A stretch of DNA of 33,832 nt from Promethearchaeota archaeon (GCA_016840165.1 JAEOSU010000091.1:1-33832), one strand, 5' to 3'; shown: positions 21,278 through 33,832, counted from the stretch's first letter. A program made the numbers and translations. Notes: a model not told the origin generated them from the letters alone.

Positions 21278-21739
21278 TTATTGTAGACGATATTTTCCTC
21301 TTTCTGTAAGAAAATAAACAAACTGGTCTCCCACTTTTTCTGATTCAATATAACCTTTCTGGTTTAAACTTTTTAAAATTTTCTCCAAATCTGCCTTTCT
21401 ATAAGGTTCGATTCCTAAAGGAATTCTACTCTGATTTGCCACAATTGCAATTCGAGATAGGAACATTCTTCCACTGATAAAAGATTCTAGTATCGTTAAT
21501 TCATCATTTGATAGCCTTTCGAACTGATCATGTTTTAAATATTGTTCTTTTAGAGTCTTTGCTAAATCCAAAGTTTCTTGGCTAACTTCTTGTTTTTGTA
21601 CATCAACATGCTTTAACTGCACAAGATCTTTTGCCACCGGTGCTTTTTTCTCTTTCGCCATTTCTTCTATATAATTCCGTATTTTATCTTGTTCGCTGGG
21701 CTCTTGTTTTGAAGGGTGTTCATCTTTTTTCTCTTCCAT
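21278..21739 (-). CDS. Hypothetical protein with C-terminal winged helix
   Basis: LEKILKSLNQKGYIES...VYFLTERGK wing motif; charged low-complexity N-terminus. Confidence 0.65.
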   Translation of the reverse strand: MEEKKDEHPSKQEPSEQDKIRNYIEEMAKEKKAPVAKDLVQLKHVDVQKQEVSQETLDLAKTLKEQYLKHDQFERLSNDELTILESFISGRMFLSRIAIVANQSRIPLGIEPYRKADLEKILKSLNQKGYIESEKVGDQFVYFLTERGKYRLQ

Positions 21740-21784
21740 AATAATACCATAAGGAATTTAATTATAAAAATTTATATTTAAATA

Positions 21785-22354
21785 ATGAAAAAAATCATTG
21801 AGATTAAAAATGGGGAACAAGTTATCATAAGACATATTGATGAATCGGATATTGATGGTGTCTGGGATAATTTTAATGAAGTTATCGATGAAGGAATTTA
21901 CTTGCCCGTTTTATTCCCTGTAAAATCTCAATATGAAAAACATTCATGGTTTAATTCATTAAAGAAAGAAAACGAGATTTGTATTGTCGCTATTCATCCT
22001 GAAAAAAAAGCTCCAAAGAATATTTTAGGGCAATGTGAAATATCTAATTCAGAATGGGATGCAGCTATTCATATTGGTAAATTAGGAGTAATTGTAAAGT
22101 CAGATTTTCGAGACATAGGGATTGGATACCATCTAATTGATTTTGCTATACGAGAATCAAAAAGATTAAATAAAAAAGAAAAAATTACGCTTAGTACATT
22201 TACTGAAAATCAAAGAGCACTCCATTTGTATAAAAAGATGGGGTTTAACACCGTTGGTATTAGGAAAAAGCAATTTTTTATGAATTCGAGATATTATGAT
22301 GAGATATTAATGGAATTATGGATTAATGATTACTTAGAAAAGAACAGCGATTAA
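21785..22354 (+). CDS. GNAT family N-acetyltransferase
   Basis: VKSDFRDIGIG acetyl-CoA motif and NQRALHLYKKMGF. Confidence 0.9.
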   Translation: MKKIIEIKNGEQVIIRHIDESDIDGVWDNFNEVIDEGIYLPVLFPVKSQYEKHSWFNSLKKENEICIVAIHPEKKAPKNILGQCEISNSEWDAAIHIGKLGVIVKSDFRDIGIGYHLIDFAIRESKRLNKKEKITLSTFTENQRALHLYKKMGFNTVGIRKKQFFMNSRYYDEILMELWINDYLEKNSD

Positions 22355-22378
22355 TGTAAGAGCTAATATGGATAGTTA

Positions 22379-23818
22379 TTATGGAAAACGAGTTCGCTTT
22401 TCATAATTCTCTTTACTTTTAACATCAAGAGGATTTTCATTTAGGAAGATAAAATTTAAGTTCTTTAAGTCTTCAATATCATTTAAATCAAAATTATTGA
22501 TTTGATTGCGCTCCAAAAATAATATTATAAGACTTTTAAGATTCTTCAAGCCCTCTATCTTAGTTATTTGATTTTTATCTAAGAAAAGTTCTTGAAGATT
22601 AATCAAATTATCTAACCCTTCGATTTTAGTAATATTATTTTTAGAGATTTCTAAGTGGGTAAGATTATAAACATTTTCAAGATTTTCTAATTTGGTAATA
22701 TTGTTATTTGAAAGGTTAAGGACTTTAAGCTTCATCAGCTGATCTAACCCTTCAATCTTTGAGATGTTATTTTGATTTAAATTCAAAGAAATTAGATTTA
22801 TTAAATTTTTGAGTCCAGAAATTTTCTCTATATGGTTATTCGATAAGTTTAATGTTTTTAGATTTTTAAGCTTTCCAAGATTCTTAATTGTTTTGATTTG
22901 ATTTGAACTCAAATTAAGTTGTTCTAACTCTATAGCCCCACTTAAATTACCTATTTCCTTAATTTGATTTTTATTAATAAATAGCTTTTTAAGATTTTTT
23001 AAAGATAAATTTTCAACCTTACTGATTTTATTACCACTTAGAATCAGTTCCTCTAAATTATTTAAATGATCTAAATTTGAGATTTTTTCAATCTGATTAT
23101 CAGCTAAATTGAGATACTTTAGATTACTTAGCAAATGTAATCCATTTATTTTCGATATTCGGTTTCTTTTCAATATAAGATGCTCTAATTGATATAATTT
23201 TTCAATTCCTGGTATCTCGGATATAGATGTTAAACTTGCTCCCTCACAATTTAATAAAATTATTATACCCTCTTTTAAAGTAACATTATATCCACATTCT
23301 TCTTTATAATAATTAAAAAGGATAAGGTTGCAGCATAATTTTATTAACTGATCACTTTTAATCGATTTCTGCTCCAAAACATATGAATAATTCGAATAGT
23401 CCCTCCGATCACTTTTAATAATGTTTTTAACCATTTTTTCGAAGTAATCATAGATTATGTTATCAGATTTTTTCAGATTGAATTTAGCTAATAGTTCCAA
23501 CGCGAAAAATTTAAGATATATGTTCTCTCCAGAATTTAAAACATATTCGAGAAGATTTATTACTTTTTTGTTTTGAAAATAATTATTCTCCAGAATCTGC
23601 CCCGATAATAACCTTAAGGTAATATCTTCATCTGATAAGAATATTTCTTCCAAAAATTTATAATTCTTTCCTTGCTCTAGCTCACCATATAATTGCAAAG
23701 CTTCTCTCCTCAAATTTGAATCATTCGAATTGCTAATCCATTTTTTCAAGTGAGCTTTTGCTTCTTTCACACCAATTTGAGAAATATTTTCCCTAAGATA
23801 TTGCGGATTGAAACCCAT
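22379..23818 (-). CDS. SDS22-like leucine-rich repeat protein with N-terminal helical (HEAT-like) region
   Basis: About 12 repeats of LxxLxLxxNxIxxIxxL, mostly 22 aa long. Confidence 0.9.
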   Translation of the reverse strand: MGFNPQYLRENISQIGVKEAKAHLKKWISNSNDSNLRREALQLYGELEQGKNYKFLEEIFLSDEDITLRLLSGQILENNYFQNKKVINLLEYVLNSGENIYLKFFALELLAKFNLKKSDNIIYDYFEKMVKNIIKSDRRDYSNYSYVLEQKSIKSDQLIKLCCNLILFNYYKEECGYNVTLKEGIIILLNCEGASLTSISEIPGIEKLYQLEHLILKRNRISKINGLHLLSNLKYLNLADNQIEKISNLDHLNNLEELILSGNKISKVENLSLKNLKKLFINKNQIKEIGNLSGAIELEQLNLSSNQIKTIKNLGKLKNLKTLNLSNNHIEKISGLKNLINLISLNLNQNNISKIEGLDQLMKLKVLNLSNNNITKLENLENVYNLTHLEISKNNITKIEGLDNLINLQELFLDKNQITKIEGLKNLKSLIILFLERNQINNFDLNDIEDLKNLNFIFLNENPLDVKSKENYEKRTRFP

Positions 23819-24090
23819 TTCTAAATCTAATAAAATTAAAGGCTGTAGATTTATTATATTATTATAATTCGTAGTGGCATTTGAATCTTATAATTGTAAA
23901 AACAATATTCGAAAAATCAATTCAATTGTAGTTCAAAATTTTATTTTTTTTTTATAACAAATTTTGCTCAAAAATTATATAGCATACATTGGAACATTAA
24001 ATTAAATGTCAATACTTAATTAGAAAGATTGTATTTTTAAAGAAATTGATAGATTTCTTTTTGTAATGCCTTATTTTAGTTTTTGTATTA

Positions 24091-24104
24091 AAAAAATTTA
24101 TAAA
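24091..24104 (+). promoter_or_regulatory. Putative BRE/TATA box for lokiactin
   Basis: AAAAAA followed by TTTATAAA about 160 nt upstream of the ATG; the AT-rich context makes this uncertain. Confidence 0.35.
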
Positions 24105-24265
24105 TGCGAAATATATTATATTTGTAATTTTAATTTGTTATAATTTATCGATATTATTATACATATAAAAAAAATTATTATTGATAAAAATATAAAAATT
24201 AAAAAAACCATTTGGAATATAAATCATAAAATCAATTAAAATTAAAAATTATAAGGCAGAAAAAT

Positions 24266-25411
24266 ATGGCAGAAGAAGAAAGTTTTTTAAACGCTAAGGC
24301 TTTAGTCGTAGACAATGGTACTGGTATTTCCAAGAATGGTTTCGCAGGTGAAGATCAACCTCGATCTGTTTTTCCTACGCTAATTGGGTATCCAAAATAT
24401 GAATCTATAATGACTGATGTAGAGCATTATACTCGAGAATATTACATCGGTGAAGAAGCCATGCAATTGAAAGGCGTCCTCAAATTAATGTTCCCTGTCG
24501 AGCATGGTATTATAGAAGATTGGACTGCGATGGAAAAAATTTGGCATTATACCTTTTATACAGATTTGAGAATTGATCCAAGTGAGCATCCCGTTCTTTT
24601 AACAGAAGCACCCTTAAATCCAAGACCTAATAGAGAAAAAATGGCCGAAATAATGTTTGAAACATTTAATGTGCCTGCTCTCTATGTCGCAATGCAAGCA
24701 GTATTATCTTTATATGCTTCTGGTCGTACTACTGGATGTGTTATAGATATTGGAGATGGAGTATCTCACGTTGTCCCAATATTTGAAGGATTTGCTTTAA
24801 GTCATGCAATCCAGAGAATAGATCTTGCTGGACGTGATATCACCACCTATTTACAAAGATTATTACGTCAAAAGGGTTATTCATTCACTACTTCCGCTGA
24901 AAAGGAAATTGTGCGAGATATTAAAGAGAAATTATGTTATGTCGCCATTGATCCAGAGAAAGAAATGATGCTCTCCAAAAAAGTTGCCGGAATGGAAAAA
25001 AGTTATATGCTTCCAGACGGTGAAACCATTAATGTTGGTGTAGAGCGCTTTTTAGCCCCCGAATGTTTCTTTAATCCATCCGTAATTGGAAAAGAATTAG
25101 AACCATTAGACGATGTGATTGTGGGTTCAATTTCAGAATGTGATGTCGACCTTCGTCGAGATCTCTATAGCAATATTGTACTTTCTGGCGGTTCTACAAT
25201 GTTCCCAGGAATTAAGGAACGATTAACCAAAGAAATCAAAGAACAAATCCCAGAATCCGTTGATGTTAAGATTATTGCCCCACCCGAACGTATGTATTCT
25301 GTATGGATTGGTGGCTCAATCTTGAGTTCATTAAAGACATTCCATAGAATGTGGGTAACAAGGCGAGAATATAAAGAGATGGGACCACAAGTCATCCATA
25401 GGTGCTTCTAA
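24266..25411 (+). CDS. Lokiactin (eukaryote-like actin)
   Basis: [80 protein letters not shown] and C-terminal HRCF. Confidence 0.98.
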
Positions 25412-25412
25412 A

Positions 25413-25481
25413 GGGCTAAATTTCAAAGCCCAATTCAAAAACCAACTTTTTATTTAAGCATTTTATTTTTTCTTATTTTTT
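25413..25481 (+). terminator. Short hairpin plus oligo-U tracts downstream of lokiactin
   Basis: GGGCT-9 nt-AGCCC (25413-25431) followed by several T4-T7 runs. Confidence 0.5.
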
Positions 25482-25635
25482 ACTCATAAAACTTGACTTA
25501 AACTTTTGTATTCATATTTTCAATAATTTTCTTCTCTTAAATTCTCAAGCATATATAGGTGTTGTTATACCTAGATACTTAAAGTCATATTACCTTAAGA
25601 TCATTAAGAAATAATAAAAAATTCGAGTCCATGTT

Positions 25636-26427
25636 ATGAAATTATATCTGAAACAAAGTCATTATAGGGATGAAACCCCATGTTGCGCAAATTTATTATA
25701 TGAGCGTGGTAAACTCTTAGAGGGAACTGCTCGAGATGATTATGCAAGTGATGACTGGGCTTATTTGGATTTTCCAATAAAATGGATGTATGCAAATGGA
25801 TTTGAGGCACCAATGGCTGAAATAAATTATCAAGAATTACATATTAAACATCCCAATGACGCTCAATGGGCTATAATTGATAGTCAAGGAGAATACTTTA
25901 AAGACAATCCCGTTCATTATCCTGCAAGTCCTTCAGGAGAAATTTTTGCAGCAATGTCACTTGTTCGAAATCTTAAAGATGAGAACAAGGATTATAATTA
26001 CTTTCTATGGGTTTTTACACATGAAAGGAATCAGTGGAAATTACAAAAAAAAATTGAAATAGATGAATGGTTTCGGATTATGGATTTCAGTTCCGATGAT
26101 AAAACATTATTTCTCTATAGTTATTGGAAGATAATTGCAATATCCATGTTAGATTATTCGAAAAAAAACATATTAGAGGAAAAACACAGCAAGGCATATT
26201 TTACAAATGCTCATTTATCAATGGATAGGAATTTTCTGATTGCAGTCTTTCTTACACAAAAAAAGAAACTCAGATATCATCTTATTGAGTTAACGAATTA
26301 TAAACATATAGTCCTCTCTCGAGGAGTGAATACCGTAAAAGACGACATTTTTGATGTTCCTGATGAGGTAATAATACCCCTTGCAGTGGAGAACGGTAGT
26401 GTATTACTTACCATCTCGAAAAAATAA
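25636..26427 (+). CDS. Hypothetical protein, possibly partial beta-propeller
   Basis: 263 aa ORF with recurring blade-like motifs SPSGEIFAA, FSSDDKTLF and LSMDRNFLIA. Confidence 0.6.
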   Translation: MKLYLKQSHYRDETPCCANLLYERGKLLEGTARDDYASDDWAYLDFPIKWMYANGFEAPMAEINYQELHIKHPNDAQWAIIDSQGEYFKDNPVHYPASPSGEIFAAMSLVRNLKDENKDYNYFLWVFTHERNQWKLQKKIEIDEWFRIMDFSSDDKTLFLYSYWKIIAISMLDYSKKNILEEKHSKAYFTNAHLSMDRNFLIAVFLTQKKKLRYHLIELTNYKHIVLSRGVNTVKDDIFDVPDEVIIPLAVENGSVLLTISKK

Positions 26428-26814
26428 TTATTTCTTCATAAGATACTAATTCTTGGGATCCAAGATTTCTGTCCCTAGTCATACCCTATTCTATAAAATC
26501 TTAAATCCATTTAGTAAAATTTCTATATTAAAAATAAAAAAAAAATATAAATTTAGGTTGAATTATTTCCATTCCATTCCTAAAAGCTTATAACTGTCAG
26601 AAACGCCCATTAATGGTTCTAAGTCATAGGTAAAACTCTCAATAGCCATAAAAGGCATGAAATATTTAGACACTTCTGCCATTGCCTCTTCTGCTTTACC
26701 TCGCTCAGTATAAATAAGATGATATTGCTTTACACCTTTTGTTCCTCCAGGAGTATTAAATACCCTCCATTTACTAACAAAAGGTAACTCTCTAGATTGT
26801 TTCAAATATAATTT
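25639..26814. repeat. Imperfect 18-bp inverted repeat pair (25639-25656 and 26797-26814)
   Basis: AAATTATATCTGAAACAA versus the reverse complement AAATTATATTTGAAACAA, 17/18 identical; both read KLYLKQ in their genes. Confidence 0.6.
26530..26545 (-). terminator. Oligo-U tract downstream of the 102-aa gene
   Basis: A-run on + strand (U-rich on the transcript) 17 nt after the stop; archaeal-type terminator. Confidence 0.4.
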
Positions 26815-26871
26815 TGCTATATCTGGCGCTTTATGAGGTGCATACCATACGGTAATCATGAATAAGCCCAT
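26563..26871 (-). CDS. Small hypothetical protein (alternating beta/alpha pattern)
   Basis: Clean 102-aa ATG ORF with globular composition, a 95-nt upstream gap and a U-tract downstream. Confidence 0.75.
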   Translation of the reverse strand: MGLFMITVWYAPHKAPDIAKLYLKQSRELPFVSKWRVFNTPGGTKGVKQYHLIYTERGKAEEAMAEVSKYFMPFMAIESFTYDLEPLMGVSDSYKLLGMEWK

Positions 26872-26966
26872 TTTTCAACACATTATTAAGTATTTTTTGG
26901 ATTAAAGGTAATATAAAAGTATATTGAGTTGCTATATAAATTTTGACATTTTTATCCAGAATTAGA

Positions 26967-29057
26967 CTAAAATTCTATTGGAGCACTTTTTTCAAAGTGG
27001 GCTCTGCTAATCCCTGTACTTGCATCTTTAGCGACAATGATTTGATGAACCTGAAGTTCTTTAGGGATTTCTGTATGGGTTATCAAGAAGATCTGAGGAA
27101 AATTCTTTGAATTTAAGAGATAGCTCAATATTCTTTTGCGACGATTCTCGTCTAAAGCTGCTAATGGTTCATCTAACAAGAGGAAATCCATTTTAGGATA
27201 CTTTATTGGCGAATTTTTAGTGGGGCGCGTCGTTTTCATTAATTCACTAATAGCTAGTCGTAGTGCAATCCCTAATGCCGTTCTATCCCCCCCTGAAATC
27301 ATCTCGACAGATTCATTTACCCCATTAAAATGATCCTTAATCTTAAGGGAAAGGCCAGTTTTTCTGGAGCCTTCTAGATCAATCATAAGTTTCCCATATT
27401 GTCCCAAAGTGAAATTTCGAATATATTTTTCGGTAACACGTGCAATATTTTTAACCAAGCGTTTGGTTACCATATATTCTGTAACAAATCGACGCACTAA
27501 TTCTCTTACTTTGCCAATATGGATTAAATCTACCTCTAAATCCCCTATTTGCTCGTGAAGTTGGCGCATTTTCATGAGTTCTTTCTCTTTTTCATCAACT
27601 TTATCACGATAGTCATTGATGTTTTGCTGGAGCTCAATAATTTTATTTTCAAGTCCATTGAGTTCCGTAGTCAAGCGTTCAACCTTTAAACTTTTCAAAC
27701 GGATTGCTTCTCTTTTCAGTTCTATATGCTTAAATCTCTTTTTATTTGCATCTAGGAAATTTGTTAATTGTGATTTGTTTTTTTCAAACTCTTTTTCATA
27801 TGCGATGATATGTTCTTTATCATTTTTTGCATTTTCTATTACATTTAATTCAGAAGTAAATTTTTTTATGTTAGTGTCATAATTATCTATATCTATTCTA
27901 AGTTTATCGAGAACCTTCGTTATATTTTGAACTTTCTGGTTATCTTTAACAATATTTCCATTAAGTTTAGCTAAAAGCTGCTCGTAATGATCATGTGTAA
28001 GTTCACTTTCACATAAAGGGCAAGTAATGGTCTCAGTAGAAGAGAATTTGAGCTCTGTTTGAATTCTTTGTAGTTGTTTTTGAGATACACTTATTCTTCC
28101 TTGAGGTTTACTGAGACCTCGATTTATGCGTTCGTATTTTTCTTTTAAAACTTTTTTTTCCTCTTCAAGCTTGCTTAAATCCTCATTCTTTTTATCAAAT
28201 TTGACTTGAATTTTATTTATAGAATCAAACTCTTCAGGATTTAATCCTTTTTCTAATAAGGTTACGTCATATCGTTTGATAAATGAGGTTAATTTATCTT
28301 GGCTAGATTCTACTTCATTATAAAATGTTTCTAATTGCCTAAAAAGTTCAGCTGAAGGGAGCTCTTGAAGTTTGGCTTTAAGATTATTTATATCTTTTTC
28401 ATTATTTTTGAATTTTTTTTGATCTTCTTCGACCTTTTCTTTCAGTTCTTTAATATCCTCTTCTATTCTTTCGATAGGGATTCTCTTTTTTAATAATAAA
28501 TCCTTTTTTACTTCTCTGTCTTTTCGTTCATCCTCAAGAGATTTTAATGCTTTATCGATTATATCCAATTGAAATAATTGGAGTATCATTTCCCTAATCT
28601 CTGCCCCCTTCATAGAGGAAAGTTTTTCTACTTCCCCTTGCTTAACAAAGATCGTACTTAACGCCTGATTGCGAGTGATTTCAAAAAAATCTTTTATGTC
28701 AAATTGGGGGATTTCTCGATACTTTTTAGAAGTTAAGTTATATTTGAATAATTGCTTGCTCTTCTTTTTGGAGCGATTCCACTTGCGATGTAGGTAGTAT
28801 TTCTCATTATCTAATTCGAAATAAAGGTAGATCTCTGCCTCATGTTCTCCATAATTGATGAAATCTTCTGTTTTTTTTCCGGGAAAAGCCCGTGAGCCAA
28901 AAAATGCATAAAGTATGCCTTCGACAATCGTTGATTTCCCATGAGAATTTGGGCCGCTAATGAGGATCAACCCTTCGGGAAAATTTTCTTTAATACCAGG
29001 GAGTTGCACTAACTTATAACCCATAAAATTGCGATATTGAAGTCTTAAGATTTTCAT
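26967..29057 (-). CDS. rad50: Rad50/SbcC SMC-like ATPase
   Basis: Walker A GPNSHGKST, Q-loop VKQGE, central zinc hook CPLC, signature ISGGD, Walker B/D-loop LLLDEPLAALD, H-loop ITH, coiled coils. Confidence 0.9.
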   Translation of the reverse strand: MKILRLQYRNFMGYKLVQLPGIKENFPEGLILISGPNSHGKSTIVEGILYAFFGSRAFPGKKTEDFINYGEHEAEIYLYFELDNEKYYLHRKWNRSKKKSKQLFKYNLTSKKYREIPQFDIKDFFEITRNQALSTIFVKQGEVEKLSSMKGAEIREMILQLFQLDIIDKALKSLEDERKDREVKKDLLLKKRIPIERIEEDIKELKEKVEEDQKKFKNNEKDINNLKAKLQELPSAELFRQLETFYNEVESSQDKLTSFIKRYDVTLLEKGLNPEEFDSINKIQVKFDKKNEDLSKLEEEKKVLKEKYERINRGLSKPQGRISVSQKQLQRIQTELKFSSTETITCPLCESELTHDHYEQLLAKLNGNIVKDNQKVQNITKVLDKLRIDIDNYDTNIKKFTSELNVIENAKNDKEHIIAYEKEFEKNKSQLTNFLDANKKRFKHIELKREAIRLKSLKVERLTTELNGLENKIIELQQNINDYRDKVDEKEKELMKMRQLHEQIGDLEVDLIHIGKVRELVRRFVTEYMVTKRLVKNIARVTEKYIRNFTLGQYGKLMIDLEGSRKTGLSLKIKDHFNGVNESVEMISGGDRTALGIALRLAISELMKTTRPTKNSPIKYPKMDFLLLDEPLAALDENRRKRILSYLLNSKNFPQIFLITHTEIPKELQVHQIIVAKDASTGISRAHFEKSAPIEF

Positions 29058-29064
29058 GATCTAT

Positions 29065-30378
29065 TTATCCCTCTTCATTTTTTTTAGTAGATTCCAATGC
29101 ATTATTTATTGCTTCAATACCAAATTTAGTGAGTTTATCCACATCATACTCTGTAGTCTCTTCTGTTAAGAGCTCTTTTATATAGTTTTTAAATTCAAGT
29201 TCAGGATTTTCCAAAATATATCCTTGGAGGGAACCTGCCGAGATGCTTTGTTCTTTCTCTTCAGAAATATCTGATGTTTTCCAAATCAATTGTAATATAT
29301 TATAAACTTCAGGCTTGGAAAAATATTCTCTTCTTAACTGTGTCATCACATTGGTGATGGTCCAAAGTAGTTCATAATTAAGCTCACCTTGAAAATCAAA
29401 TTTTATACGAGCAGCTGTTTTTGGATTAAATCCGTTCGAAGAGCTATATGGCTTTAATTCACTTTCTATAAGGGTTTGTATCCCTGACTTTGTACTTTGG
29501 GGCGAAACTTTAATGGGAATTATTTCAAAGTTTCTCTGTAAACGAGAAGTCAGATCCACAGATTTTACTAAGGGAGTTTGTCGTGACGCTGTTATATCTA
29601 CTACTAAGTAACCTTGAGAATGATAAATTTCTTTAAAATTAAGCGGTAAAAGCGCACCTGAGAAATAGCTTCGGGAATTTTCCTTTCTTTGAGCATGTTC
29701 GTGTCCTAAAGCAATATAATCATAATTAGCATTGTTAATAATTTGGGGATGGAGGGTATTATCTAATTTGGAACCGTGGACTACCGCAATGGCAATTGAA
29801 TCACGTGATTCTTTTGGTTGTTGAATATTTAGCCATTTTTTATAGGCATTTTCATAATCCCGATGAATACTATATTCAAAATATGGAAATAAGTAGAATT
29901 CTACCTTTTTACCATCAAAATTCAGATTCAACTGTAAAGGTTGATTAGTTTTAATCGCATCAAGCATATCTTTAGCAGTAAAATAATAGAGCTGAGGAAA
30001 AAGTTGTTTATTAACATGCGTTTCAAAAGGTGTATAGTCATATCCTCGAAAGATGCCATGATTTCCTTCTATATAAATAAAAGGAATAGAAGAATTTGTC
30101 TGTTCAAAAAAAAGTTCTAGACCCTTGATAAGGGTTCTTCGAGCTGGATCGGAAGGAGGATATGGATTATTTTGATGTGGTGTGTGAAACATATCTCCAG
30201 CATGGATTACAAAATCAATTCCATCGATTTGTGTGATTTCTTTGATTACCGAAAGGAAAGTATCATAAATTTCTTGCTCATAAGGTCGAGAGTAGTTTTC
30301 GCGAGCCCATTGATTTATTGCTCCTTTTCCAATTCGATATCCGAGATGTGTATCGGATAAATGGACGAATTTAACCAT
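29065..30378 (-). CDS. mre11: Mre11/SbcD nuclease
   Basis: HLSDTHLG, HAGDMFH, EGNHG, VVHG and ALGHEH phosphoesterase motifs; adjacent to rad50. Confidence 0.9.
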   Translation of the reverse strand: MVKFVHLSDTHLGYRIGKGAINQWARENYSRPYEQEIYDTFLSVIKEITQIDGIDFVIHAGDMFHTPHQNNPYPPSDPARRTLIKGLELFFEQTNSSIPFIYIEGNHGIFRGYDYTPFETHVNKQLFPQLYYFTAKDMLDAIKTNQPLQLNLNFDGKKVEFYLFPYFEYSIHRDYENAYKKWLNIQQPKESRDSIAIAVVHGSKLDNTLHPQIINNANYDYIALGHEHAQRKENSRSYFSGALLPLNFKEIYHSQGYLVVDITASRQTPLVKSVDLTSRLQRNFEIIPIKVSPQSTKSGIQTLIESELKPYSSSNGFNPKTAARIKFDFQGELNYELLWTITNVMTQLRREYFSKPEVYNILQLIWKTSDISEEKEQSISAGSLQGYILENPELEFKNYIKELLTEETTEYDVDKLTKFGIEAINNALESTKKNEEG

Positions 30379-31597
30379 TTAATCCCCCTCTTTTTTTAGT
30401 TGGTATAAGGATTTTATTTCTCCATTTTTGAATATACATTTGTGTGTTTTGATTTAATTGAAGATCAATAAAATTGCCTTCTAGTTTGTTATATTCAGAG
30501 ACTAGTAAAGTACTCGCGTTATGAGCCTCTTCAAGGCATAATGGATAACCAAATGGTGAATAAGGTATTAAATTTTGGAGAATAGTAAGGGTTTCAGTTA
30601 AGGAATAATAATCAGGCACGTCAAATCGCAATGCAGCAGCTTGCTCCTGTATCCTTACGATACATGCTTTACTCTTTGTGTATTTGGAAAGATCGGGTAA
30701 TTCCACTAAAAACTGCTTACCTTCGAGCATATTAGACCAAATGGGCAGAATAAAGTTTCCTTGGGCATCTCGCAATCTGCAAGTTTTTGAAAAACTAAAA
30801 TATTTAATATCATAGGTTTTTAAGAGCTGATAGAAAAATTTAATGAAAGCAGCAGGCGGGAAAATGTGCTGGCGGAACATTTGAATTCCATCTCCTAAAA
30901 AAATTATATCTTTCTCTTTTCCCCAGTCACTCACTTCGATAATACGGATAATACTTTTTAATATTTCATCTGCCGTTCGAATTCGGTCAACCACATGTCC
31001 CATGGATGGATAGTAAAAGTCATGGCCATCAATATGGGAATCAATTTTTTTACGATATTTCTCTTTAAACCATTTTTCTAACTCGGTAAGATTATTTTTT
31101 AATGGACCTTGCCCAAAATTCATTTTAAGCACCTCAATAAAATTCTTGATGACATCCCGATATATTATTAGTTTATGATCATTATCTTCGATATATGCAG
31201 TAATAGGGGGATACATTATCTTTTCTTTTTGATATTTTCCATCATTAAAGGTTAGTTGACACTCTCCAAATTTAAATGAAGCTAAGAGTGCATATGTTCC
31301 CGTCATCGTATTTGAGCTCTCATCGAATCCAATAATTCGATAACCTTTTTTAACATACGAATTTAGACTTTCTTCTAAGATATTATATTTGAGCTCACTA
31401 AAATGCACCTGAGTGTTGGAAAGAGTCTCATCAGTATCAAACTTGTCTGTTTCTAGCTCTAGTTTTTCCTCTTTTGTCCAGTTGACCTTCCGATCCTTAA
31501 TATGTTGCTTGAATAAGAGGACTTCTTGGTCCACTGAATGTTCTGGACGCTTTTCAAAAGATTTTTCAAGGGAAATCAGTTCAAAATTAAATGACAT
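30371..31597 (-). CDS. nurA: NurA-family nuclease (divergent)
   Basis: IIGFDES, FLGDG, FSKT and C-terminal GYPLCLEEAH motifs; lies between herA and mre11. Confidence 0.75.
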   Translation of the reverse strand: MSFNFELISLEKSFEKRPEHSVDQEVLLFKQHIKDRKVNWTKEEKLELETDKFDTDETLSNTQVHFSELKYNILEESLNSYVKKGYRIIGFDESSNTMTGTYALLASFKFGECQLTFNDGKYQKEKIMYPPITAYIEDNDHKLIIYRDVIKNFIEVLKMNFGQGPLKNNLTELEKWFKEKYRKKIDSHIDGHDFYYPSMGHVVDRIRTADEILKSIIRIIEVSDWGKEKDIIFLGDGIQMFRQHIFPPAAFIKFFYQLLKTYDIKYFSFSKTCRLRDAQGNFILPIWSNMLEGKQFLVELPDLSKYTKSKACIVRIQEQAAALRFDVPDYYSLTETLTILQNLIPYSPFGYPLCLEEAHNASTLLVSEYNKLEGNFIDLQLNQNTQMYIQKWRNKILIPTKKRGGLNG

Positions 31598-31633
31598 TGA
31601 TATTTTCCTCTTTATTTTTTTAATAGTTATTAA

Positions 31634-33382
31634 TTATGGTAATTCAGTATCAGGAGGTGACCTATTACTCATCTCTCGGGCAAAATTTTGAAAGATCGAC
31701 TTGGATACACCCTCAAAATAATTATCATAAAGTGGAATTTTAAGTTTTTGAAAATTGGTCAACCATATACCTGATACTAAAGCAATTCCTCGGGTACCAG
31801 TTAAAGATTCAACATCATTCATCGAGATTCCACCTCCAAGCATTTTAGCAGCGGTAGTTTTTTCTTTTTCTGAACGTAATGGAAGATTGATTACAGTATT
31901 CATATTCTGAATGATAGTATCATCAATAGGGCTATATTGCTGTGATATCACCTCCAAAGCTAAATTAAACTTTCTACCCATACGAGAGATATCAGAAAAA
32001 ACTGAACTTAAACGCATTACATCGGAAGAAAGTATGGTTGGTGCCTCCTCTATTGTAAAAATGATGATAGGTACCTCATCTGGGCGCTTCAATTGATCTG
32101 CTGTCTTCATATAATTGGCTTCTAGAAATTGGCGGTAATTGTGTAGAAAATAAGAAGGCAACGTGTCAACTAATCGGCTCTCAAAAGTGGCAAAATCATT
32201 AGATGATTTTAAAGCTTTACGAATTTCAAACAAAGTTCGAGCTAACACACTATTGAAAAGGAAATGCTCCTTACTTGAGAGTAATGATACATTCAATATA
32301 ATAATACTTCCATTTTCTAGACGATTTACTATTTCATGAAGCGTACTATTCCCTTCTAACTGATACATTCGCGAGTTCTCTAACCAAAAGAGTCTGCGCC
32401 GAATTGCATCATAAGTTCTTGTATCATGTCCTCCCGGAAGATCTTCGGTTTCCCCTTTGATTAATGCATCAATATAATTAGTATCTTTATCCCTAAAATG
32501 ATAGTAAGCGGAATATACAGCTCCTGCTTGAAGATCATTAAAAGTTCCCGTCGCAAATAAGTCTTGAGGTAAGATATCTTCATAGCTAATAATACAAGGT
32601 CGTGAAACCGCATTTAATTCAAGTGGGGCAACACTTCCGTTTGGATATAAATAAAACCAATCACCAAGTAATTCTTCATTGTTATCCGTAGCTTCAGCAA
32701 TATCAATTAACCCATAATTATTACATCCTAAGGCATATTCATCATGCATATCTATAGCGAGAATGGATATTTTGATTCCTTGATGATTCAATAATACATT
32801 TGCATTGTGTTGAAGGGCTCCATCAATAATAATTTGATTGAGATTCGATTTCCCTTGCCCTGTCGCCCCAGCAATCATAAAATGATAATTGAGATACCGA
32901 TATGGAAAATAGACCTTTACTTGATTTTCTGCTGCTAAAGTTCCCATAAAAACTCCATCTGGGTTGAATATCTGTTCTAAATAATGAGCTTTATCACTTT
33001 GATCCTCGGAAATCTTAAGTAAATGAGGCTTAATTATATTTTTTTCCATTAAATCCTCAACAATGAAGAAAACATTAAATGTATTATGTTCCACTTGATT
33101 TGATTTTTTATTAATGATAGTACAAATTATTGGCCTCCCTTGGACTACATATTGCAGCTCCGATTCTAACTCTGCCTTGATATAGTCAGTCATTTTGACA
33201 TTTTTTAATTTTTGTCGAGTCATGACATAATCTGAGATTGTTTGAATGGCGATAACTTGCACGATAATGACATAAACATTTTCATCGTTTTCCGCCTCCA
33301 ACTTGATAAATCCATGAACATGAACATAATTTTCATAGAAGATATCAATTGTGCTTTCTAATGGATTTATTTTTATTATCAT
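31634..33382 (-). CDS. herA: HerA/FtsK-family ATPase (divergent)
   Basis: N-terminal beta-rich (HAS-like) region, Walker A GATGQGKSN, DMHDEY, Walker B FTIEEA, GRKF arginine finger and ISQ motif. Confidence 0.88.
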   Translation of the reverse strand: MIIKINPLESTIDIFYENYVHVHGFIKLEAENDENVYVIIVQVIAIQTISDYVMTRQKLKNVKMTDYIKAELESELQYVVQGRPIICTIINKKSNQVEHNTFNVFFIVEDLMEKNIIKPHLLKISEDQSDKAHYLEQIFNPDGVFMGTLAAENQVKVYFPYRYLNYHFMIAGATGQGKSNLNQIIIDGALQHNANVLLNHQGIKISILAIDMHDEYALGCNNYGLIDIAEATDNNEELLGDWFYLYPNGSVAPLELNAVSRPCIISYEDILPQDLFATGTFNDLQAGAVYSAYYHFRDKDTNYIDALIKGETEDLPGGHDTRTYDAIRRRLFWLENSRMYQLEGNSTLHEIVNRLENGSIIILNVSLLSSKEHFLFNSVLARTLFEIRKALKSSNDFATFESRLVDTLPSYFLHNYRQFLEANYMKTADQLKRPDEVPIIIFTIEEAPTILSSDVMRLSSVFSDISRMGRKFNLALEVISQQYSPIDDTIIQNMNTVINLPLRSEKEKTTAAKMLGGGISMNDVESLTGTRGIALVSGIWLTNFQKLKIPLYDNYFEGVSKSIFQNFAREMSNRSPPDTELP

Positions 33383-33710
33383 GTTAAATCATATTTTCTC
33401 CTATTATTTATCATATATAAATAAGAATTTTTGGTTTTATTTTTGACCACTCAGGATAATTTAATATTAACTTAATTTGAAAAAACTTAAAAAAATATAG
33501 GCATACACAGTTTACTAATGAAGTTAATCGCTATTAAATGAACTTACTCATTGTTCTATTAATACTCAACCTAAAAGTTATGCAAATAATATTTAGGTAA
33601 AATTTTATTACATTATCTTTGATATTAAAAATTGATATTAAATAAATTTAAGATCCAATTCAATAAATTTTGAACATGAAAATTTGATCTATTAAATAAC
33701 TTGATTAATT

Positions 33711-33832
33711 ATGCCCGAAAGTAGTGTTATTCTAAACGATATCAACAAGGTATTTGTACCCTGTAGAACTGTTTTAGAAATGGAAGCTTTAACATCCTTA
33801 TTGTTAGAGCATTTTAATTATGATATGATCAA
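33711..33832 (+). CDS. Probable 5' end of a CDS truncated by the window edge, divergent from herA
   Basis: ATG at 33711, open for 40 codons to the end (MPESSVILNDINKVFVPCRTVLEMEALTSLLLEHFNYDMI); more GC-rich than the preceding spacer. Confidence 0.5.
   Translation, partial: MPESSVILNDINKVFVPCRTVLEMEALTSLLLEHFNYDMI

Follow-up and report, generated by a model that had tools for sequence, protein, structure and literature searches.

A herA-nurA-mre11-rad50 cassette of an exchangeable type as the probable DNA end-processing machinery of a Lokiarchaeial genome

In Sulfolobus, Pyrococcus and Thermococcus the genes herA, mre11, rad50 and nurA form one translationally coupled operon, herA-mre11-rad50-nurA (PMC3326311, PMC4351679, PMC13748450), and published orders of these genes already differ among archaea (PMC13748450). 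Asgard homologues of NurA are uncharacterised (PMC13748450), and multiple paralogues have been noted. Here, we describe a herA-nurA-mre11-rad50 cassette of a Promethearchaeota archaeon (GCA_016840165.1), found on a stretch of 33,832 nucleotides (JAEOSU010000091.1:1-33832, the window) that is the entire contig C77 of a 3.6-Mb assembly, 99.7% complete (the genome under study, G000). The lokiactin gene nearby and the source organisms of homologues place the genome with the Asgard archaea (Lokiarchaeia/Promethearchaeota type). Like the archaeal resection operon, the cassette unites the same four families in one translationally coupled operon, with intact motifs in the ATPases and nucleases, a CxxC hook in Rad50 and a predicted NurA fold in NurA. 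Unlike in that operon, the order is herA-nurA-mre11-rad50, Rad50 is about 200 residues shorter, the proteins carry clade-wide variants (EEAP, GFDES, GNHG, SGGD) and score far below the NCBIfam equivalog cut-offs, and what is a stable core operon there is apparently inherited here as an exchangeable cassette. We named this Asgard-specific lineage type W. With a probability of about two in three, the W cassette is a complete and functional HerA-NurA-Mre11-Rad50 machine that processes the ends of DNA double-strand breaks, the only Mre11-Rad50 system of its genome and the working Mre11-Rad50/HerA-NurA machine of this organism, and it belongs to a set of exchangeable cassettes and has replaced one of another type (type C). 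The four genes are:

31634-33382, minus strand: herA, 582 amino acids (aa), predicted HerA/FtsK-superfamily hexameric DNA translocase, type W
30371-31597, minus strand: nurA, 408 aa, predicted NurA-fold nuclease, type W
29065-30378, minus strand: mre11, 437 aa, predicted Mre11 phosphoesterase nuclease, type W
26967-29057, minus strand: rad50, 696 aa, predicted short Rad50 ABC-ATPase, type W

All four open reading frames (ORFs) are intact and of full length and translational coupling is kept, with a gap of 36 nt between herA and nurA, an overlap of 8 nt between nurA and mre11 and a gap of 7 nt between mre11 and rad50. A purine run of the GGAG/GAGG type lies 6-19 nt upstream of each start. A first-pass annotation of the window had reported four coupled genes, each preceded by a Shine-Dalgarno-like site, and our analysis agrees in both respects. 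It had also called the gene order non-canonical. The order is real, but it is a weak oddity and carries little weight, since characterised archaea vary in order and relatives of the W lineage use three orders: herA-nurA-mre11-rad50 in most of the family (f1), mre11-rad50-herA-nurA in genus g12 and in G027, and nurA first elsewhere.

HerA matches Pfam DUF87 with 51.9 bits (cut-off 23.2) and the NCBIfam HerA models weakly. It has the Walker A motif (GATGQGKS), the Walker B motif (IIIFTIEEAP) and the arginine-finger region (RMGRKF) of a HerA/FtsK-type ATPase, plus the motif SQQY. NurA reaches only 18.1 bits with Pfam NurA, under the cut-off of 21. A profile built from seven NurA orthologues had NurA of Sulfolobus (2ygk) as its first match (E = 0.002), and a Foldseek search with the AlphaFold2 model (pLDDT 71, pTM 0.74) returned TdpAB chain G, 2ygk, 9x1l and 3tai as top matches. 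The Foldseek probability was 1.0 for 2ygk, 9x1l, 3tai, 8wfd and the NurA-like TdpAB subunit, at modest TM-scores of 0.28-0.54. The best structural match is chain G of TdpAB, presumably a HerA-NurA-like anti-phage complex. As far as a predicted structure allows, this confirms a NurA fold (RNase H/PIWI-like). GFDES replaces the canonical DGS motif and a GYP...AH motif is conserved towards the C terminus; D92, within GFDES, and GYP...AH359 are invariant across the seven orthologues, and the catalytic residues, assigned by alignment only, are putative.

Mre11 matches Pfam Metallophos (47.4 bits) and NCBIfam Mre11/SbcD models and has all five phosphoesterase motifs (DTH, GDMF, GNHG, VVHG and GHEH). 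In motif III a G stands where D or E is usual, which is conserved clade-wide. Its closest solved chains are Mre11 of P. furiosus and M. jannaschii. Rad50 matches NCBIfam PRK03918 (146 bits) and Pfam AAA_23 (59 bits); SMC_N was also matched. Matches to Rad50 models and structures cover both halves of the head, the N- and the C-terminal one, and the closest solved chains are Rad50 of M. jannaschii and P. furiosus. The Walker A motif (GPNSHGKS), the signature (SGGD) and Walker B (LLLDEP) are present, and the zinc hook CPLC lies near residue 346 in the middle of a coiled coil that is shorter than in canonical Rad50 (Pfam Rad50_zn_hook 18.7 bits, below the cut-off of 24.3). The protein is organised as a split head, a coiled coil and a hook.

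The first-pass annotation had listed departures of all four proteins from the family consensus. Every motif it quoted is present (HerA IEEAP, RMGRKF and SQQY; NurA GFDES; Mre11 GNHG; Rad50 GPNSHGKS and SGGD), but they are lineage signatures that are invariant across the clade. All orthologues examined keep EEAP, RxGRKF, SQQY, GFDES, GNHG, SGGD and the CxxC hook, even those with about 40% identity in another genus. Judged from these alignments, the "deviant" motifs are the conserved signature of a distinct, selected Asgard lineage and not a sign of decay.

The W cassette holds the only Mre11-Rad50 pair of the genome. Searches of G000 for a second canonical set with Pfam and NCBIfam models and with tblastn gave neither a second Rad50 nor a cluster. 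The Rad50 of the window is the best Rad50 match in the genome and the remaining matches are of the SMC type; tblastn with the canonical 906-aa Rad50 of a related family found nothing comparable. G000 lacks a long Rad50, a type C helicase and any gene of a third cassette type (T3), and it retains no trace of the C or T3 cassettes. Three other DUF87/HerA-like genes (on contigs C43, C9 and C49), one NurA gene and one Mre11-like gene (both on C54) are present, all of them solo and in unrelated contexts. The solo HerA on C43 (L020:5980-7548; 522 aa, DUF87 92 bits) and the solo NurA (L019:6128-7402; 424 aa, canonical-scoring with 74 bits in Pfam NurA) are linked neither to each other nor to any Mre11-Rad50, and every one of the 24 genus genomes has them, as do almost all genomes of the order. 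Since both are also found in genomes that have a canonical herA-mre11-rad50-nurA operon, they are separate conserved paralogues and not remnants of a housekeeping operon. The idea of a second module beside a housekeeping set is not supported: in a 99.7%-complete genome the cassette is the only Mre11-Rad50 pair, and it substitutes for the cassette of the sister species. What survives of the proposed paralogy is that the lineage is distinct from the canonical long-Rad50 operon and that other HerA, NurA and Mre11-like genes exist, but not as a second module.

The sister species and closest relative, G007 (same genus, 98% complete), provides the most direct evidence for replacement. The window aligns to contig C4 of G007 (L079) on both sides of the cassette:

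21307-25515: aligns with 80% nucleotide identity; includes the gene of lokiactin, the protein being 100% identical
26523-26956, no strand assigned: rad50-side conserved flank; aligns to L079:12815-13241 with 77% nucleotide identity; includes a 102-aa gene
33383-33459, minus strand: cassette-specific upstream region without counterpart in G007; carries TTTATATA
33460-33832, no strand assigned: herA-side conserved (upstream) flank, up to the contig end at 450 bp from herA; aligns to L079:3466-3866 with 73% nucleotide identity

Between these flanks, and in the same orientation, G007 has a helicase-Mre11-Rad50 cassette (8.9 kb) and G000 has herA-nurA-mre11-rad50 (6.5 kb). The match of the herA-side flank lies directly upstream of the gene for the 1490-aa helicase of G007, and the divergent gene that starts at 33711 in this flank is the orthologue of a 321-aa gene there. 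On the other side, the 102-aa gene (26563-26871) encodes a protein 76% identical to its orthologue in G007. The breakpoints are 11 nt past the rad50 stop codon and 78 nt upstream of the herA start. As aligned, window positions ~26957-33459 precisely replace the type C cassette that G007 has retained. Homologous recombination in the flanks would be the simplest mechanism; the edges of the cassette have only short, AT-rich chance repeats and no signal of site-specific insertion, and no integrase or transposase was found nearby. The upstream region specific to the cassette has a TATA-like element, TTTATATA, about 35 nt ahead of the herA start, which may serve as promoter.

Three types of cassette can be distinguished. 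W is herA-nurA-mre11-rad50 with a short Rad50 (~700 aa). T3 consists of a nurA-like gene (376 aa), herA (~520 aa), mre11 (~430 aa) and rad50 (~700 aa). It shares with W the four families, the short Rad50 and a chromosomal site (slot A, in G018 and G019), but nurA is first, the proteins are only ~21-27% identical to those of W, and G008 has spare copies in defence-like contexts. Type C consists of a ~1490-aa superfamily 1 (SF1) helicase (Pfam AAA_11/AAA_12), mre11 (~520 aa) and rad50 (~900 aa); examples are L079:3883-12668 (C4 of G007), L076:5539-14238 and L083:4281-13090. Only the C-terminal third of the helicase is SF1-like (AAA_11/AAA_12/UvrD), its N-terminal ~960 residues are without Pfam match, and its gene is directly coupled to mre11 and rad50. 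Type C resembles W in that it occupies the same two slots in the same orientation, is the only Mre11-Rad50 of its genome and is combined with a motor protein. Unlike W it has a single large helicase instead of HerA and NurA, and it is not orthologous: partial alignments only were obtained with W, at 24-32% identity for Mre11 and 24-30% for Rad50, and its Mre11 and Rad50 are related to the canonical operon of family f2. As a separate observation, in G217 of genus g22 (L108:6028-9246) a nucleotidyltransferase gene (DUF4037) and a gene for a 711-aa bacterial-type UvrD helicase precede the W cassette on the same strand, which is another pairing of an SF1 helicase with Mre11-Rad50.

The cassettes alternate at two chromosomal sites. 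Slot A lies between an aminotransferase gene and genes for peptidase-like, diacylglycerol-kinase-like and methyltransferase proteins. It holds W in G008, G012, G015, G017 and G021, T3 in the two genomes named above and C in G016, G023 and G024, and it is empty in G000, G007 and G005. Slot B is the site beside lokiactin, used by G000 (W) and G007 (C).

To follow the types further, 400 genomes of the phylum were surveyed, among them 134 of family f1 besides G000. Among the 24 other genus genomes searched first, eight have a W HerA orthologue and G007 has none. Within f1, W HerA orthologues with 59-65% identity are present in 49 of 134 genomes, and three more have one at ~41%. Counted by type, W is found in 52 f1 genomes (the three of the ~41% sub-type included), C in 28 and T3 in 45. 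Exactly one type was observed in 104 of the 134 genomes (~60 expected if the types were independent), two or three types in 10 (~30 expected) and none in 20 (~43 expected), a tally that is descriptive and not a test because relatives are not independent samples. Absences of W are filled by alternative Mre11-Rad50 cassettes. Part of the class without any type represents assembly breaks or further variants, since short Rad50 proteins are encoded in G011 (702 aa, at the edge of a contig) and in G260 (670 aa).

A species-proxy tree was made with FastTree from the two universal solo genes of 25 genus genomes. Its basal clade is all C, except for G003 in which none was found, and a second clade has T3 throughout. 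Both W and C occur in a third, which includes the sisters G007 (C) and G000 (W) as well as G017, which has both. This pattern requires at least 4-5 changes of type among the 25 genomes. The distribution of W is patchy (8 of 24 genus genomes, 52 of 134 in f1). The first-pass annotation had reasoned that an only copy, universally present in the same order and congruent with the species tree, would speak against its view; the cassette is indeed the only copy, but it is neither universal nor constant in order, and for G000 it is not congruent with the species tree.

W is not restricted to f1. W-like operons, recognised by 33-39% identity in HerA, ~30% in Mre11 and ~27-31% in Rad50 and by a Rad50 of ~700 aa, were found in other Asgard families as follows:

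Three Asgard families tallied together, every listed match being in f31: 84 of 89 genomes
f11: 4 of 4 genomes
f26: 3 of 3 genomes
f28: 5 of 5 genomes
f13: 25 of 31 genomes

In these families the usual order is herA-mre11-rad50, preceded by a weak NurA: the upstream ORFs have VDGSG and GYP...AH motifs and weak Pfam NurA matches, and hhalign relates the W NurA to such an ORF with a probability of only 21%. The W-like Rad50 is the sole Rad50 in G319 and G368. T3-like modules are also fixed in other Asgard families (6 of 6 genomes of f21, 4 of 4 of f27). Since W-like operons are common outside f1, W is a member of an old and widespread Asgard lineage and not a rare add-on. In the distant Asgard genome G307 (L106:6263-7465) a gene for an RRXRR/HNH endonuclease was seen between mre11 and rad50 of the W-like operon, and the Rad50 is longer there (853 aa).

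The W copy of G000 is itself exceptional. Its identity to each of the other W cassettes, irrespective of genus, is 61% (HerA), 56-63% (NurA), 50% (Mre11) and 45% (Rad50), whereas the others share 70-84%, 59-81%, 66-73% and 59-69%, respectively. In the W-HerA tree genera mostly cohere on short branches; the terminal branch of G000 measures 0.69, ~20 times the median of 0.035, and G000 does not group with its own genus. Among 5.8 billion proteins a single closer cluster was found (91%), all others being at most 65% identical. Together with the species-proxy tree, in which G000 with W is sister to a type C genome, this divergence suggests acquisition of a divergent sub-lineage from an unsampled donor, and the copy was probably acquired horizontally. 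It is not decaying, since all invariant motifs are retained. The characterisation of the module as long-branched and divergent was therefore correct, and W has also moved between chromosomal sites.

By homology, we picture the following function. A dimer of Mre11 would bind and open DNA ends together with the Rad50 ATPase, whose coiled coil carries the zinc hook; a HerA hexamer would pump the duplex into a NurA dimer, which would degrade the 5' strand, and 3' tails would remain for RadA-mediated recombination. In f1 the Mre11-Rad50 function would be supplied by one of three non-orthologous cassettes that displace each other at the same slots, and in G000 a divergent W cassette, probably of horizontal origin, would have replaced the type C cassette that the sister keeps beside lokiactin. 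Few genome-maintenance machines are as conserved as Mre11-Rad50, and eukaryotes have no closer known relatives than the Asgard archaea. If our reading is correct, a single Lokiarchaeial genus meets its need for Mre11-Rad50 with three non-orthologous cassettes that interchange cleanly at fixed sites, HerA-NurA being the partner of Mre11-Rad50 in one of them and a large SF1 helicase in another. Much of Asgard break repair would then be missed or mislabelled when annotated by comparison with Sulfolobus or Pyrococcus proteins, arguments on the resection system of the ancestor of eukaryotes would have to allow for several co-circulating systems, and G000 and G007 would be a natural swap experiment for the functional equivalence of cassettes. 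In the literature searched we found no description of short-Rad50 lineages or of cassette replacement; the present analysis adds the tally of the three types, their two chromosomal slots, the position of both breakpoints, the placement of W across the Asgard archaea and the divergence of the G000 copy.

Several points weigh against reading the cassette as the resection machinery. Function rests on homology, because no Asgard HerA, NurA, Mre11 or Rad50 has been characterised biochemically or genetically (PMC13748450). The NCBIfam equivalog cut-offs are missed widely (146 versus 700 bits for Rad50, 45 versus 500 for Mre11, 45 versus 800-970 for HerA) and NurA has no NCBIfam match at all; the missed cut-offs place the proteins in a separate lineage within the resection system, not as orthologues of the studied proteins. 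With solo HerA and NurA conserved throughout the genus, the HerA-NurA of the cassette is not the sole such pair. The tallies are drawn from related genomes, many of them incomplete metagenome-assembled genomes (MAGs), and the types are not strictly exclusive: ten f1 genomes have two or three, and G335 and G307 hold a long Rad50 besides the W-like short one. The f1 genomes with more than one type are mostly MAGs that are large or have 7-9% contamination, or they have fragments only, such as the 186-aa C fragment with an internal stop codon in G268. For core repair genes, such frequent replacement and horizontal transfer is uncommon; defence loci behave in a similar way. Finally, G008 has two extra T3 cassettes off the usual slots (L056:10349-12178 on C38 and L057:11718-15212 on C12); in one, a gene for an OLD-like ATPase-TOPRIM protein separates nurA from herA, and a TPR-NucS/PD-(D/E)xK protein is encoded close by; in the other, a gene for a 1164-aa Eco57I/MmeI-type methylase comes after rad50.

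These contexts in G008 mean that for the wider family the idea of defence is not baseless, and the main alternative is a conflict-driven or dual-role reading, which we consider possible although unlikely. Resection machinery would then also degrade linear viral or plasmid DNA, and both the three-way polymorphism and the divergent variant of G000 would be kept by an arms race with inhibitors encoded by mobile elements, which would make the locus similar to an immune hot-spot. Repeated replacement in situ at two slots, with the 4-5 or more type changes in the genus, would fit, as would the long branch of G000, the spare T3 copies beside an OLD-like nuclease and a restriction-modification methylase, and the resemblance of NurA to TdpAB, if the assumed anti-phage role holds. 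Against it, no inhibitor or link to viruses was found, a scan of viral contigs gave no relative of the cassette HerA, the contexts of the window and of slot A are housekeeping, and W changes slowly inside genera and mostly respects their limits. The pattern is explained equally well by neutral sorting of redundant cassettes from a stage at which both were present, as in G017. One could tentatively go further and see the Lokiarchaeial resection machinery as an exchangeable allele, with three ancient, non-orthologous cassettes circulated by conflict with viruses or plasmids that attack the machine or are attacked by it, and the W copy of G000 as a horizontally acquired escape variant; this is as doubtful as the arms race itself. 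If true, a core repair complex would become part of the Asgard immune repertoire.

The first-pass annotation had suggested a possible repurposed defence system, and a dedicated defence or anti-plasmid module, in which an accessory SMC/Rad50-nuclease and HerA system is set apart while other genes do housekeeping repair, appears improbable to us. It would account for the patchy presence in the genus, the relocation between slots and the solo HerA, NurA and Mre11-like genes elsewhere in G000. PADLOC indeed gives LmuB with 98.5 bits on Rad50 and defence-type HerA models with ~45 bits on HerA; these are generic ATPase matches only, the Rad50 model outscores LmuB (146 bits), NurA and Mre11 are without PADLOC match and no convincing system was assigned to the cassette. 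The W cassette has ATPase folds in common with Lamassu LmuB, Sir2-HerA, DUF4297-HerA and TdpAB, but unlike these it has Mre11 and a zinc-hook Rad50 and no defence effector: PADLOC and Pfam revealed no LmuA/LmuC, JetABD, Sir2, DUF4297 or TOPRIM partner in or beside it. Neither a defence island nor a mobile element surrounds it. The neighbours are housekeeping genes (lokiactin, leucine-rich repeat protein, GNAT, aminotransferase, peptidase, methyltransferase), and the divergent gene at 33711, which had been proposed as a place to look for a defence context, belongs to the flank conserved in G007. Base composition is ordinary: GC content and GC content at third codon positions equal those of the neighbouring genes, with no compositional anomaly. 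Above all, G000 has no other Rad50 partner for repair, the cassette substitutes for the Mre11-Rad50 cassette of the sister and does not add to it, most f1 genomes have one type each, and in several other Asgard families nearly every genome has a W-like operon. For the cassette of the window, a sole copy in a slot for repair cassettes, a role in repair is the better reading. That the cassette is a redundant copy drifting under relaxed selection towards loss is very improbable: the ~20-fold terminal branch and the identity of only 45-63% to other W cassettes would agree with it, but the four ORFs are of full length, every clade-invariant motif and the translational coupling are kept, the 91% relative indicates that the sub-lineage is maintained elsewhere, and G000 has no alternative Mre11-Rad50.

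Some further observations concern the solo genes and the surroundings of the slots. The solo Mre11-like phosphoesterase on C54 (L018:5035-9297, C54:152034-156293; 393 aa) has canonical GNHD and GHFH motifs. Its gene forms a cluster with those of a 425-aa and a 537-aa protein, with synteny kept in G007, G014 and G017; the Mre11-like gene itself has counterparts in 19 of 24 genus genomes, which are only 47-58% identical. The two conserved neighbours were considered as a Rad50-like partner and dismissed, as neither has a Walker A/P-loop or a Pfam or PADLOC match. On contig C63 (L023:5389-9852) G000 encodes a 1487-aa SMC_N protein (158 bits) that is distinct from the ~1150-aa SMC; each of the five genus genomes checked has an orthologue, with lengths of 1482-1504 aa.

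Window positions 25516-26522 (~1.0 kb), between lokiactin and the 102-aa gene, lie close to the swapped cassette without being part of it. They have no match in G007, where 0.54 kb of unrelated sequence is found instead. This region holds a 263-aa ORF (25636-26427) that has no Pfam match and is single copy in G000. At slot A, a stretch of 1.3-2.2 kb (in G000 L081:8626-10730, on C30) is conserved throughout the genus with 70-80% nucleotide identity, at empty and occupied slots alike; homologous stretches are in L080, L082, L036, L038, L054, L076 and L077. It has no ORF of at least 90 aa, and a search for an RNA gene gave no Rfam match at E ≤ 0.01. In G005, part of this stretch has an internal tandem duplication of ~360 bp.

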